DNA of 64,000 nucleotides from the IMG/VR virus record IMGVR_UViG_3300046786_000293, positions 1 to 64,000 of that record; one strand, 5' to 3'. The notes under the pieces were generated by a model that worked only from the letters and a program-made list of their open reading frames with translations, was not told where the DNA came from and searched no databases. Shown here piece after piece: positions 4,125 to 61,075 of this stretch (within the stretch, counting starts at the first letter, position 1; each line of letters starts with the position of its first letter). The position numbers were made by a program, and so were the translations under genes. Source of the DNA: a virus. Its lineage: Duplodnaviria > Caudoviricetes.

Positions 4125-4748
4125 TTATTTTGAGGTGCCTACAACTTCTATTTCAACTCGACGGTTTTTAGCACGACCTGCGGCTGTTTTATTGTCTGCT
4201 ATAGGTTGGCGTTCGCCTTTTGAATCTGTATAAACACGAGTCTTTTCAATTCCTCGGGTAACTAAGTAAGCCTTAACCGCCTCTGCTCTTCGACGGCCGA
4301 GGTTCATATTATATGAATCTGACCCTATCGAGTCGGTATGCCCAACAGCAATGATAACTTCAAGAATAAACTCTTTGTTGATTTTTCCGACTAGTCCGTC
4401 TAATACCAGACGACCTTCGGGTTTAAGTACACTCTTATCAAAGTCAAACAAAGTATCAGTGGCGTAAGTTAATTTAACAATCTTAGATGCTTGTGGTTGG
4501 GGAGCCGGTAACGTAGCTACCGGAGTTGGTGCAACTACCGGAGCAGTAAATGTAGCTTGGATGCGGGGAACAGGTTTAATTGCACAATCACAATCAGGAT
4601 GTGTAGTGGCAGGGGTCCAAGAACTATTACGCCAGCATTGTTCTGAAGAGTTTTTCCAAGGTGTATCTGTAGAATTGACCCAATTATTAGTTTGAGCACT
4701 CACTAGGCCTGCACTCACGGCAACAATTGTAGTAATAAGTTTTTTCAT
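4125..4748 (-). CDS. ompA: OmpA family outer-membrane/peptidoglycan-binding protein, Betaproteobacteria type
   Basis: Signal peptide; N-terminal W-K-N...CWR...WTP...CD; Pro/Ala linker; OmpA_C motifs LFDFDKS, VGHTDSIGSDSYNMNLGRRRAEAV, NRRVEI. Confidence 0.92.
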   Translation of the reverse strand: MKKLITTIVAVSAGLVSAQTNNWVNSTDTPWKNSSEQCWRNSSWTPATTHPDCDCAIKPVPRIQATFTAPVVAPTPVATLPAPQPQASKIVKLTYATDTLFDFDKSVLKPEGRLVLDGLVGKINKEFILEVIIAVGHTDSIGSDSYNMNLGRRRAEAVKAYLVTRGIEKTRVYTDSKGERQPIADNKTAAGRAKNRRVEIEVVGTSK

Positions 4749-4780: not shown

Positions 4781-5365
4781 TTACTTTTTTATTCGTTGCG
4801 TTTGATAAACAATTCTGGGATCATTTGCACTACTAGCCCATAGTCCTTTGTCTATGCCCCACTGAATTAGTATAAAAAATATCAGTATAAAAGTAGCAAT
4901 AATTCCTACACCTATAGCAATGTCAGACTGAATTTCTTTTAATTCTTGTTTTTTCTTTTCGCGCATAGTTTTTTCGAATAGTTCTTTACTTTGTGCTAGT
5001 GCTTGTTCTTTTTCCAGTCTAAGGCGTTCTTTCACCATAGCATGATATATCTCACCATTGCCGGACCAGATTAGCAGAGTCTTAATTTCTGCTTCGTCCT
5101 CAATCATCTTTTTTTCTTTTATTGCAACATCTAATGCTCGAGCAGTTAGTTCATAGTAATCCTCTTGTCGGTTTTCCTTCAAGGATTCTCTTTTTTTCTC
5201 TTCAACTTGTCGGCTTTCTTGTTTAATTTGATGCTGGGCGTGAAAGAATTTTGTAAGATCTCCACTCACCTCGTAGATATCTTTGCCCAATTTAATGGCT
5301 TCTTTTACCGTTTTCACACTTGCTTGTGCCATGGCAAAAGCCGCACCAACTGTCAGCGGGTCCAT
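4781..5365 (-). CDS. Coiled-coil protein with C-terminal TM segment
   Basis: Start MDPLTVGAAF; charged helical middle; hydrophobic IAIGVGIIATFILIFFILIQW. Confidence 0.7.
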   Translation of the reverse strand: MDPLTVGAAFAMAQASVKTVKEAIKLGKDIYEVSGDLTKFFHAQHQIKQESRQVEEKKRESLKENRQEDYYELTARALDVAIKEKKMIEDEAEIKTLLIWSGNGEIYHAMVKERLRLEKEQALAQSKELFEKTMREKKKQELKEIQSDIAIGVGIIATFILIFFILIQWGIDKGLWASSANDPRIVYQTQRIKK

Positions 5366-5402
5366 ATTATTATTGTTGTCCTTCCCTGACAGAATATTTA
5401 TC

Positions 5403-5427
5403 AAAAAAAATGGACTCCTAAGAGTCC
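5403..5427 (-). terminator. Terminator at the end of the tmRNA coding piece
   Basis: GGACTC-TTAG-GAGTCC followed by A and T8 on the minus strand. Confidence 0.85.
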
Positions 5428-5651
5428 AATTTGGTTGTTTTGGTTACAAGGTAAGTCCTACCCCGGGTTTGGCACTATTAGGCCAATACAGCCTCGCGAC
5501 GAGCAGAAGCTAGCTTTACGCCTTTTCCGCTGAACTTGAAGCTACCATTTGTAGATGCTTTTGCATTTACTAGATTTATGCGATTAACGTTCGTCATCTA
5601 ACGTGCTGTCCACTCTGTTACTCTTTGCCCTGTCGAAACCATGGCAGGCCC
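5405..5651 (-). ncRNA. ssrA: Permuted tmRNA, coding piece (5' acceptor strand, D-loop, tag ORF)
   Basis: Starts GGGCCTGCCATGGTTTCGACAGGG (typical tmRNA 5' end); TAAAT|GCA resume context; tag ORF 5564-5478 ends in TAA. Confidence 0.88.
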
Positions 5652-5660
5652 ATCATAAAA

Positions 5661-5912
5661 TTACTTAATGTATTTGTTGATAACTTTAATTCCTGCGTAA
5701 GTTCCTAGCACAGTAAACATCATTTTGAATACTGTTGTCCAGTCAGTGGCATTACTTAAAGTTAGTTTAATAGGGCCTGCTTCGATGGAGTCTGTTGTTT
5801 TAGGATGATCTAAAAATTGAACATAATATAACAACAAATCCCAAGCATACTGGCTCAACAGATATATCGCAAACGATATAATAAAACCAGTAAACAAACC
5901 TCTACGATACAT
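5661..5912 (-). CDS. 83-aa two-TM protein inside the tmRNA intervening segment
   Basis: AGGAGA RBS directly after the tmRNA CCA; two hydrophobic segments; stop 9 nt before tmRNA G1. Confidence 0.8.
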   Translation of the reverse strand: MYRRGLFTGFIISFAIYLLSQYAWDLLLYYVQFLDHPKTTDSIEAGPIKLTLSNATDWTTVFKMMFTVLGTYAGIKVINKYIK

Positions 5913-5924
5913 TAAATCTCCTTA

Positions 5925-5990
5925 TGGTGGACCTGGCGGGAGTCGAACCCGCGTCCAGAACACTTTTCTCTTTGCTTCATACAGCAATAA
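5925..5990 (-). ncRNA. ssrA: Permuted tmRNA, acceptor piece (T-arm and CCA)
   Basis: ...GTTCTGGACGCGGGTTCGACTCCCGCCAGGTCCACCA; CAGGTCC pairs with GGGCCTG, giving a G3-U70 wobble. Confidence 0.9.
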
Positions 5991-5994
5991 CTAA

Positions 5995-6000
5995 TATTTA
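5995..6000 (-). promoter_or_regulatory. Putative T4-like late promoter TAAATA driving the tmRNA precursor
   Basis: TAAATA lies between a terminator and the acceptor piece; short motif, so position is the main support. Confidence 0.5.
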
Positions 6001-6005
6001 TCAGC

Positions 6006-6028
6006 AAAAAAGGCTCCGAAGAGCCTTT
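6006..6028 (-). terminator. Rho-independent terminator
   Basis: AGGCTC-TTCG-GAGCCT plus T-run on the minus strand. Confidence 0.85.
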
Positions 6029-6046: not shown

Positions 6047-6397
6047 TTACTCTGCAACAGCGTCAACGATGGCCTGAGCCTCGGACTTCTTAGAGCGAGC
6101 CTTAATAGCCTCGAGGCTGGGCTTTTCTGCCTTAGACGGCTTACTGACTTTGACAGTCTTAACTTCATTATACTTGGCATCTGCGGCATCGATTGCGGCA
6201 GTGTAACGAGCATCTGCATAGAGCTCAGTAGACTTGAGATAAGTAACCACTGCGGGCTTATCCATAGCCTCGGGCAGTTCGCGAAGCTCAATATCAGTAT
6301 GACCATTCTTGGCCAACACTTTAACACGAGTCATGTCATTGGCGAAACGAACTTTAGCTTCACCTTTGAGAACGGAAAGACCAGCAACTTTAAACAT
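6047..6397 (-). CDS. Conserved phage hypothetical protein with basic Ala/Lys-rich C-terminus
   Basis: 116-aa ORF with GGAG RBS, promoter upstream and terminator downstream. Confidence 0.8.
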   Translation of the reverse strand: MFKVAGLSVLKGEAKVRFANDMTRVKVLAKNGHTDIELRELPEAMDKPAVVTYLKSTELYADARYTAAIDAADAKYNEVKTVKVSKPSKAEKPSLEAIKARSKKSEAQAIVDAVAE

Positions 6398-6462: not shown

Positions 6463-6491
6463 ATTATAGTTGATTTTGGATTTGATGTCAA
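6463..6491 (-). promoter_or_regulatory. Sigma70 promoter
   Basis: TTGACA-17-TATAAT. Confidence 0.85.
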
Positions 6492-8053: not shown

Positions 8054-8413
8054 TTAGCTACAGATTTCGTTTGACAATCGTTGTGCTATGCTTTTTTGCT
8101 TACGCATATTGGCAGGCTGTCCAGTACCCAAATCGTCGTGTGTAAACATTCCGTACAATGTAATGACATTGCCATCCACTTTGTAGACTATGCTTAAATC
8201 TAAATTTAAATGAGCGTGTCGTATACCTGGTACAGCCTGTGTAAAAAATCCTGCACTTAAAAAAGGTTTATCACTTTTACCAAACTGCTGATTAGGATTA
8301 GTACGCTTTACTTCCATGAACTGGCGAAGCTTTTCTTTTAGTTGAGGATAAGGTTTGATCCTACTAAAGTAAGTTTCTTTATAAAGTTCACATCGACGAA
8401 ACGTTGTTTCCAT
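8054..8413 (-). CDS. YafQ/RelE-family mRNA interferase-like protein
   Basis: D-K-P...GIRHAHL..DLSIVYKV....TLY...THDDLG matches the YafQ pattern DHPL...GYRDAHVEPDWILIYKL...GTHAALFG. Confidence 0.72.
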   Translation of the reverse strand: METTFRRCELYKETYFSRIKPYPQLKEKLRQFMEVKRTNPNQQFGKSDKPFLSAGFFTQAVPGIRHAHLNLDLSIVYKVDGNVITLYGMFTHDDLGTGQPANMRKQKSIAQRLSNEICS

Positions 8414-8601
8414 TATTCCTGATCCCACGCATCCATTTCTGCCAGAAGTTCTTCATATGACATGGGTTTGGACCAGTTACAACTTTGTTCTTGTTGAACA
8501 ACACGCACGAGATCCTCTGTCTGGAAATTAGTGTCATTATTTTTGTCAATAGTTTCCGTTAGAGATTTTGTACTAGATACTTTAACTTCATTAATCTTCA
8601 T
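8413..8601 (-). CDS. Small acidic protein, candidate antitoxin
   Basis: 62 aa; TAATG overlap with the toxin start; acidic tail SYEELLAEMDAWDQE. Confidence 0.55.
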   Translation of the reverse strand: MKINEVKVSSTKSLTETIDKNNDTNFQTEDLVRVVQQEQSCNWSKPMSYEELLAEMDAWDQE

Positions 8602-60475: not shown

Positions 60476-61075
60476 TTATTTCATTTGTATAGGTTTAACT
60501 GGTTTATCAAACGGATCGGGAGCGGCTACAGGATGTCTACCACATGCTCTCTTATTCCCTTGTCCTGCTTCTGTTAAAAACTCTGTGCCTTTGGCAATTT
60601 GACCGATAGGACAGCTACACGTAGCAGTCACAGTTCCATTTGTAGGATCTTTGTCGTATTTACACATCATACCCCAACAATTAGTAGATCCTTCTGCCAA
60701 AGCACCCGGGCAACTTTGAATTTGTGCTTTTGTTGCACTGGGGGGTCGTCTTGCAAAACCGTTTGCTTCTTGCGGGTAGTGAAATCCTTCTACCAATCGA
60801 GGTGCGAATAAACTCCATACTTGTGTGCTAGGATCATCCACGCTACAACTGCCTTTCATAACACCTGCACTTAGATCAGCAATACTAGGCCCTTCGAGTA
60901 CAGGACATTTACACACTACCTCAGGATAAGTAACACCGTTATTGGTAGTAATAGTTTTACCAGTCTTAGTACAAGTACTTGCGGCACATAGTGCAAATTT
61001 ACCTTGACAAATTGTTAATTCGCCGGCAAAAACAGATGAAGATAAGAACGCTAATAATAAAAATATTTTTTTCAT
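60476..61075 (-). CDS. Exported 12-Cys protein
   Basis: Signal peptide; 12 cysteines; lies between nrdA and nrdB. Confidence 0.8.
   Translation of the reverse strand: MKKIFLLLAFLSSSVFAGELTICQGKFALCAASTCTKTGKTITTNNGVTYPEVVCKCPVLEGPSIADLSAGVMKGSCSVDDPSTQVWSLFAPRLVEGFHYPQEANGFARRPPSATKAQIQSCPGALAEGSTNCWGMMCKYDKDPTNGTVTATCSCPIGQIAKGTEFLTEAGQGNKRACGRHPVAAPDPFDKPVKPIQMK

Follow-up and report, generated by a model that had tools for sequence, protein, structure and literature searches.

A permuted two-piece tmRNA gene in a jumbo phage genome carries a conserved protein gene in its spacer

Introduction

Two-piece transfer-messenger RNAs (tmRNAs) are known from phages. ARAGORN called 53 of 133 unique phage tmRNAs two-piece (PMC9004378), and carriers include Methylophilales phage Melnitz and pelagimyophages, marine T4-like myophages (Buchholz et al. 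2022, PMC9004378). The permuted tmRNA of betaproteobacteria is credited, in a citation given in PMC9004378, to Sharkady and Williams 2004. Inserts are known in other tmRNA genes too: the T-loop may contain a group I intron that carries a homing-endonuclease gene, and spacers of permuted genes have been found with a tRNA-Ala gene or with a repeat element (PMC11915505). Here we describe a permuted tmRNA (ssrA) gene at 5403–6002 on the minus strand of the first 64 kilobases (kb) of IMG/VR virus record IMGVR_UViG_3300046786_000293. This 64,000-nucleotide (nt) stretch is called the window below; the whole record has 338,510 base pairs (bp), an estimated completeness of 97% and 39% G+C. In our judgement the locus is probably a single transcription unit that makes a charged two-piece rescue tmRNA and whose spacer is an mRNA for a conserved protein.

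A two-piece tmRNA in a phage is itself already documented; what is new here is the combination of a nested, selected spacer gene with an atypical tag. Full-text literature searches turned up no account of a tmRNA spacer containing a protein gene. A preliminary description of the locus, made from the sequence alone, had listed the known carriers of permuted ssrA genes (alphaproteobacteria, some cyanobacteria and some betaproteobacteria). The list left out the phage-borne two-piece tmRNAs that had already been documented.

Identification and covariation of the permuted tmRNA gene

ARAGORN reported one permuted tmRNA in the window, the only one in the 338,510-bp record, with the tag AKASTNGSFKFSGKGVKLASARREAVLA followed by a double stop. 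The Rfam model tmRNA_permuted (RF04321) was matched in full (model positions 1–213; 104.9 bits against a threshold of 47; E 2e-19), the match spanning 5537–5986. These were the two computational checks proposed in the preliminary description, and both returned a permuted tmRNA. Read on the minus strand, the acceptor, T-arm and CCA half comes first, followed by the spacer and then by the 5' acceptor strand and the tag (Table 1). This order had been read correctly beforehand, as had the coordinates of the 3' piece (ending at 5925), the 273-nt segment and the 5' end at 5651, on which Rfam agrees. The placement of the 5' tRNA domain by ARAGORN, within the spacer open reading frame (ORF), was rejected as wrong, since Rfam and covariation put the 5' acceptor strand at 5651.

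Relatives of the locus were searched for with exact cores of 26 nt from the coding piece and 23 nt from the acceptor piece, each of which matched more than 110 IMG/VR contigs. The lineage is present in more than 170 viral contigs and is widespread in freshwater viral contigs. Both pieces were found in 130 loci, and the acceptor piece precedes the coding piece in all of them.

The acceptor stem formed between the pieces (GGGCCUG/CAGGUCC) has 7 bp including G3.U70, with a discriminator A and CCA, and the pieces are further joined by the P2 pairings CAGGGCA/UGUUCUG and CAGCA/UGCUG. Covariation was assessed on 68 distinct sequences of the tRNA-like domain and P2. Three acceptor-stem pairs switch among AU, UA, CG and GC, four of the five T-stem pairs covary, and so does the distal P2 helix UGCUG/CAGCA; G3.U70 is invariant in 68/68. 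The acceptor stem and the helix-2 pairings claimed earlier are thus borne out, each of the named pairings being covarying or invariant across the set. The tag frame and terminator are confirmed as well, being a 28-codon frame with a double stop and a 7-bp hairpin followed by eight U. The hairpin before the tag also covaries, ACGUU/AACGU being replaced by ACGG/CCGU and AGGG/CCCU in relatives. Between the window and the relative L005, the acceptor stem differs by compensatory change (U-A to G-C), and so does the post-tag hairpin, where GGUA/UACC stands against GGCA/UGCC. These patterns indicate that the gene is under selection as an RNA. Judged from sequence, the call lies far beyond chance, and the phage has a true permuted ssrA gene at this locus. 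The preliminary reading of it as a two-piece rescue RNA of the phage, probably transcribed from a late promoter and used with host SmpB, is supported.

Complementary spacer ends and the case for one precursor

In all relatives, the first 10–14 nt after CCA are complementary to the 10–14 nt that come before a short unpaired leader (UGAU or UAAU), itself located before G+1. The helix of the window is made up of UAAGG with UUUUA and of AUUUAAUGUAU with AUACAUUAAGU. This closing helix is realized by dozens of different sequence pairs across the relatives, and the duplexes formed by spacer ends with their own partner have a mean of −13.5 kcal/mol versus −7.3 with a foreign partner. In L005 an A-U pair is replaced by G-C, which maintains the helix and leaves the protein sequence unchanged. 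The complementary spacer ends point to one precursor RNA. The helix probably presents RNase P (ribonuclease P) with a tRNA-like substrate having U at position −1. In the window, L005 and L193 the helix takes in the Shine-Dalgarno sequence and AUG, so that translation of the cargo may well interact with folding of the tmRNA.

Contigs from three freshwater metatranscriptome runs cover 5641–5992, 5641–5921 and 5605–5860 with 2–10 differences, and in each of them the spacer is contiguous with at least one tmRNA piece. The flanking genes have no coverage by the RNA-library contigs, and one DNA run covers the whole stretch. The contigs derive from related strains, their unlike continuations matching L193-type and L006-type coding pieces. 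The contig ends at 5992 and 5641 were considered as RNA ends and rejected, because they coincide with the points where the related strains diverge. As evidence that the locus is expressed, these contigs are suggestive only.

The same data bear on the view that the two tmRNA pieces and the protein gene between them are independent genes, with no common precursor and no excised spacer. We regard this as highly improbable. It could draw on a weak sigma-70-like match, TCAACA-17-TATGAT (5680–5652), which ends at 5652, directly before G5651; as a promoter of the coding piece this match was rejected, because a −10 box abutting G+1 cannot start transcription there. No terminator lies between the pieces, the complementarity of the spacer ends in every relative only makes sense on one RNA, and the spacers of most relatives (28–90 nt) leave no room for a promoter. 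The RNA-library contigs, moreover, cross both junctions.

The protein gene inside the spacer

The spacer carries an 83-codon gene whose family comprises 34 homologue clusters of 82–89 residues, all unnamed, with 23 invariant residues including DSIEAGP. The Shine-Dalgarno sequence is kept as UAAGGA(A/G) in the ORF-bearing spacers of relatives. Relative to a 93%-identical copy between nrdA and nrdB of a 360-kb phage, the ratio of nonsynonymous to synonymous substitution rates (dN/dS) is 0.05 at a dS of 0.89, and the spacer gene is therefore under strong purifying selection at the protein level. Pfam and PHROGs gave no match for the protein, and a language-model atlas gave sub-threshold leads only (scores up to 0.84). 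An AlphaFold model with a predicted local distance difference test score of 71.5 shows a helix, a hairpin and a helix, and a fold search with this model gave no match above a template modeling score of 0.5.

The gene family usually resides between nrdA and nrdB, overlapping both. In the window there is no second copy, and the nrdA–nrdB interval holds a different gene, of 199 residues. The product of the latter (60476–61075, minus strand) has a signal-peptide-like start, many cysteines and no Pfam match. The 83-codon gene recurs in the spacers of two other tmRNA backbones, namely L005 (Rfam 129.9 bits; tag ANAANDEVYALAA) and L193 (with a diverged T-arm), and immediately precedes the acceptor piece in L192, L194, L196 and L197. 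Copies linked to a tmRNA have the C-terminus KYIK or KYVK, those at the nrd site KVIK or KLIK.

The habitual nrd location invites the explanation that the spacer ORF is a passenger, selfish or recently landed, untranslated here and without a role in the tmRNA transcript. The closing helix hides its Shine-Dalgarno sequence and AUG, no ORF is present in the short spacers of the nearest tmRNA relatives (L124 and L143), and there is a precedent in the 23S rRNA intervening sequence of Coxiella, whose S23p ORF is apparently not made into protein (PMC4990558). We nevertheless judge a passenger to be quite unlikely. The dN/dS value against the nrd-located copy means that the spacer copy has been kept under protein-level selection, and it has a strong AAGGAG at ideal spacing. 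It is the only copy in the window, where a different gene occupies the usual site, and the arrangement recurs on three tmRNA backbones (window, L005 and L193). Spanning ORFs also occur in long spacers far above chance (21/26), as described below.

Cargo genes in the spacers of relatives

A spanning ORF was defined as one that starts no more than 30 nt from CCA and stops at the spacer end, and counts were compared with shuffled controls. Such ORFs occur in 21 of the 26 unique spacers of at least 115 nt (shuffle mean 1.06, maximum 4) and in 25 of the 36 unique spacers of 80–115 nt (shuffle mean 8.6, maximum 15). The longer spacer ORFs form approximately 18 mutually unrelated families, one of which is a full-length NifU_N/IscU protein (E 3e-55). 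Most of these ORFs share the leader CCA-UAAGGAAGUUU-(A)UG, and many end in ...VSL with UGA one nt before G+1; because the last codons lie within the closing helix, these common ends of unrelated cargo are explained.

At least ten loci (among them L017, L022, L030, L050, L062, L110, L117 and L141) encode a conserved 24-residue hydrophobic peptide, MNDxLxxLAIGVVVVLVVFALVLL, in spacers of 87–90 nt behind UAAGGAG, the last codons again being in the closing helix. A 184-nt spacer in L084 (3200–3383) has an ATG ORF with no Shine-Dalgarno sequence and no in-frame stop before the coding piece; this ORF would become a non-stop mRNA after RNase P cleavage. Partial copies of the acceptor piece in L007, L063, L066, L068 and L106 share one T-loop breakpoint, after GGGUUCGAC, and lie 1.5–3.2 kb upstream of a second, complete tmRNA, with several small MNERI...HFGVE-type genes between. 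These five loci resemble intermediate stages in the capture of cargo through recombination at the conserved acceptor piece. Only the T-loop break is shared by L197 (526–580).

A more far-reaching idea, to which we give somewhat less than even odds, is that selection maintains the excised spacer as an expression slot in which small genes can be exchanged, and that it is not an accidental landing site. The conserved tmRNA pieces would then act as recombination anchors for cargo swapping, and the strong tmRNA promoter would drive both products. The closing helix would couple cargo translation to tmRNA processing, because the Shine-Dalgarno sequence and AUG are on one strand and the last codons and stop on the other, 1–10 nt from the RNase P site. 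A further possibility is that the excised spacer, when trimmed from its 3' end, would lose the stop codon, so that the cargo mRNA would become a substrate of its own tmRNA.

Lineage of the tmRNA and its atypical tag

The relative L006, with the tag ANDEQFALAA, matches the Rfam model beta_tmRNA (RF01850) end to end (1–331; 114.6 bits against a threshold of 84), and its post-tag element aligns to that model. The window copy keeps the tRNA-like domain, P2 and post-tag element of the lineage and differs by a shortened pre-tag region and a long basic tag. As far as sequence comparison goes, the window gene is a diverged derivative of the betaproteobacterial permuted tmRNA and not a typical member. 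Among 185,579 species genomes, just 1 has the 26-nt core, on a contig of 12.5 kb from a metagenome-assembled genome (MAG), which argues that the lineage is phage-borne rather than a recent host copy. This sole match, L186 (DITF01000195.1, MAG UBA6191), probably represents a contig of phage DNA that was binned with a bacterial genome.

Tags of the ANDExFALAA type make up approximately 95% of the 114 family tags. The window tag, AKASTNGSFKFSGKGVKLASARREAVLA, is an outlier, having 28 residues, a net charge of +5 and the ending AVLA. A homologous tag of 32 residues and net charge +5 is found in L124, with 14 of 28 aligned residues in common, 5 of them through different codons; L124 also carries the upstream gene of the window, at 71% identity. 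That the basic tag is kept in a second phage raises the question of whether the phage redirects rescued proteins away from ClpXP.

A tag of this kind would suit a decoy or modifier RNA, which would compete for host SmpB and ribosomes and block host trans-translation, or would add a non-degron tag sparing proteins from ClpXP. We consider such a role unlikely, though less so than a passenger ORF. The distance of the tag from the prevailing type, the residues common to the L124 tag through different codons, which suggest selection on the peptide, and the lack of SmpB in the phage are all in line with it. So is the tmRNA of phage DS6A, which consists of a tRNA-like domain only and inhibits host tmRNA (PMC4131195, PMC11915505). 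However, all elements of full function are kept in the window gene: G3.U70, the T-arm, P2, the UAAAU-GCA resume context, an open tag frame and double stops. The last tag residue is still Ala at the end of a hydrophobic tail, and most relatives have canonical degron tags.

Proposed mechanism

The anatomy of the gene, its covariation, the selection on the ORF, the occurrence among phages and the lack of a phage SmpB are demonstrated here. For the type of promoter, the enzymes of processing, the charging, what becomes of tagged proteins, and the mode and timing of ORF translation, we infer the following scheme, which elaborates the rescue tmRNA with an mRNA spacer. The minus-strand region 5403–6002 would be one transcription unit, bounded by terminator hairpins at both sides and read from the late-type promoter GATAAATA. 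The spacer ends would pair, extending the acceptor stem and bringing the two tmRNA pieces together. RNase P would cut before G5651 (position −1 being U), and host 3'-end enzymes would trim to the encoded CCA at 5925. The products, RNAs of approximately 66 and 248 nt, would be held together by the acceptor stem and helix P2. G3.U70 and A73 would lead to charging by host alanyl-tRNA synthetase, and host SmpB would bring the RNA into stalled ribosomes. Translation would resume at GCA 5564, and the 28-residue basic tag ending in AVLA would be added. The spacer would serve as mRNA for the conserved 83-residue predicted membrane protein; since the closing helix occludes its Shine-Dalgarno sequence and AUG, synthesis of the protein would most likely take place co-transcriptionally or upon helix opening. 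The gene would belong to a branch of the betaproteobacterial permuted tmRNA lineage that is carried by phages, and in this branch the spacer has repeatedly served as a slot for small genes.

Transcription from a late promoter is plausible from three features: the phage encodes a gp55-type late sigma factor, GATAAATA lies upstream of the unit, and the motif recurs before genes. The sigma factor gene is at 207019–207921 of the genome (phrog_12791, E 3e-79). The motif [TG]ATAAATA occurs 23 times on the coding (minus) strand versus 6 times on the plus strand, below the composition-expected count, and often 20–40 nt before start codons. At the position of GATAAATA, relatives have TATAAT, TAAAAT or TAGAAT. 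The 11-mer TGATAAATATT is found twice in the genome, both on the minus strand: before the tmRNA (5995–6002) and right after its terminator (5395–5402), where it precedes gene 4781–5404.

Several observations weigh against the proposed scheme. The promoter hexamer is poor as a sigma-70 match. The RNA-library data are assembled contigs, which give no ends, strand or level and may include carried-over DNA. Enclosure of the Shine-Dalgarno sequence and AUG in a helix may just as well keep translation of the ORF from the precursor low. In the tmRNA itself, the pseudoknot region before the tag is reduced, with two alternative loop-to-downstream pairings possible for pseudoknot 1 (PK1), and the tag does not have the usual terminal LAA. 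Against beta_tmRNA, the window copy reaches 12.3 bits versus a threshold of 84, in the 3' part only.

If the scheme holds, a discarded segment of a stable-RNA precursor is a working mRNA, which would be a new way for a phage to pack and co-regulate genes. The locus would also set RNase P processing against translation initiation on a single helix in a natural setting, and gene callers and tmRNA annotators would each miss half of it.

Table 1 Features of the permuted tmRNA locus, listed in the direction of transcription (coordinates of the window).
Feature	Position	Strand	Remarks
Terminator-like hairpin AAAGGCUC-UUCG-GAGCCUUU and U run	6009..6028	-	Read from sequence; ends upstream gene 6047-6397; unlisted by the terminator scan, the U run being partly within the stem
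Promoter-like GATAAATA	5995..6002	-	7/8 match to T4 late consensus TATAAATA; directly upstream of acceptor piece
Acceptor piece, ~66 nt	5925..5990	-	Rfam alignment and covariation; 5' end inferred from promoter position
Distal P2 strand UGCUG	5986-5982	-	Acceptor piece
Proximal P2 strand UGUUCUG	5962-5956	-	Acceptor piece
T-arm GCGGG/UUCGACU/CCCGC	5952-5936	-	Acceptor piece; Rfam alignment
Acceptor 3' strand CAGGUCC	5935-5929	-	Discriminator A 5928; CCA 5927-5925
Intervening segment (spacer), 273 nt	5652..5924	-	Without a place in the mature tmRNA
Closing helix 5' strand, UAAGG and AUUUAAUGUAU	5907..5924	-	Covers part of the Shine-Dalgarno sequence and the start codon
Shine-Dalgarno sequence AAGGAG	5918..5923	-	Starts one nt after CCA; 5 nt before AUG
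Spacer gene, 83 codons	5661..5912	-	Predicted helix, beta-hairpin, helix; predicted small membrane protein
Closing helix 3' strand, AUACAUUAAGU and UUUUA	5656..5673	-	AUACAUUAAGU = last codons and stop of the gene
Unpaired leader UGAU	5655-5652	-	Directly before G+1
Coding piece, ~248 nt	5403..5651	-	Rfam, covariation, sequence
Acceptor 5' strand GGGCCUG	5651-5645	-	Start of coding piece
GGUUUCGAC	5640-5632	-	Coding piece
P2 strands of coding piece	5632-5626 and 5608-5604	-	
Hairpin ACGUU/AACGU before tag		-	Coding piece
Tag reading frame	5475..5564	-	Resume codon GCA 5564-5562 after UAAAU; 28 codons to 5481; then UAA UAG
Post-tag hairpin GGUA-GGACU-UACC	5450..5462	-	Then conserved CUUGUAACCAAAA
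Intrinsic terminator	5403..5428	-	7-bp stem 5428-5411, then eight U (5410-5403)

Genome setting and presumed host

The 338.5-kb jumbo phage genome has 40 tRNA genes according to ARAGORN. One of them, outside the window at 183606–183679 of the genome (plus strand), has the anticodon CUA and the ARAGORN label tRNA-Pyl; it is a candidate amber-suppressor tRNA on the strand opposite to the main tRNA cluster. The late sigma factor is approximately 43% identical to proteins of PA5oct-like jumbo phages, the nearest isolate relatives. No SmpB is encoded in the 338-kb phage genome, which leaves host SmpB as the only option for use of the tmRNA. The sequencing runs containing the tmRNA locus are nearly all freshwater or lake metagenomes; together with the tmRNA type, these metadata suggest a freshwater betaproteobacterium as the host.

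Directly upstream of the tmRNA unit, gene 6047–6397 is preceded by a perfect sigma-70 consensus promoter, TTGACA-17-TATAAT (6463–6491, minus strand). Two genes downstream of the tmRNA, at 4125–4748 (minus strand), lies a gene for an OmpA-family, peptidoglycan-binding protein (Pfam PF00691, E 3e-20) with a signal-peptide-like start, homologues of which adjoin the tmRNA in L019, L048 and L086. A YafQ-like mRNase candidate at 8054–8428, 2 kb away, had no Pfam support at E ≤0.01 and was kept out of the mechanism.

Comparison with known systems

The nearest analogue of the spacer of the window gene is provided by the 23S rRNA intervening sequences with an S23p ORF of Coxiella and Leptospira (PMC4990558), which are likewise stem-closed, excised from a stable-RNA precursor and ORF-bearing. 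Those sequences interrupt a different RNA, are cut by RNase III and carry a single ORF family, the protein of which is apparently not made in Coxiella (PMC4990558), whereas the cargo of the tmRNA spacers is diverse (approximately 18 families) and under clear purifying selection. The inserts surveyed in PMC11915505 are comparable in showing that a tmRNA gene can accommodate a large segment that is lost from the RNA; for the 11,946 permuted genes of that survey, there is no mention of a spacer with an ordinary protein gene. Unlike the introns described there, the spacer inserts of the window lineage are not introns and encode no endonuclease.

A search of a phage collection gave no close relative of the locus, only the tRNA-like domain (6–10% of the query) being matched. 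The Menderavirus phages of Stenotrophomonas (e.g. Marzo, MZ326868) are approximately 81% identical over the acceptor piece, and their annotated tmRNA has the acceptor half first and is thus also permuted. They differ in that the similarity is limited to 68 nt of the tRNA-like domain and that the gene lies within a tRNA cluster.

With the betaproteobacterial tmRNA (RF01850), the window gene has in common the tRNA-like domain, P2 and the post-tag element, and its lineage relatives also have ANDExFALAA tags. The differences are its 12.3-bit score, the shortened pre-tag region, the 28-residue tag and a lineage carried by phages.

A similar setting is found in Melnitz and the pelagimyophages: there, too, permuted ssrA is carried by a large lytic myophage that lacks SmpB, with T4-type transcription, which the window phage probably shares, and such genes occur mainly in aquatic phages. 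Their tmRNAs are reported to be of the alphaproteobacterial type with a link to a glutamine riboswitch (PMC9004378), while the window gene derives from the betaproteobacterial type. The window gene also has a protein gene in its spacer, no spacer gene being described in PMC9004378, and an atypical long basic tag. The present locus adds a betaproteobacterial-type lineage, with more than 170 viral contigs widespread in freshwater, to the documented two-piece tmRNAs of phages.

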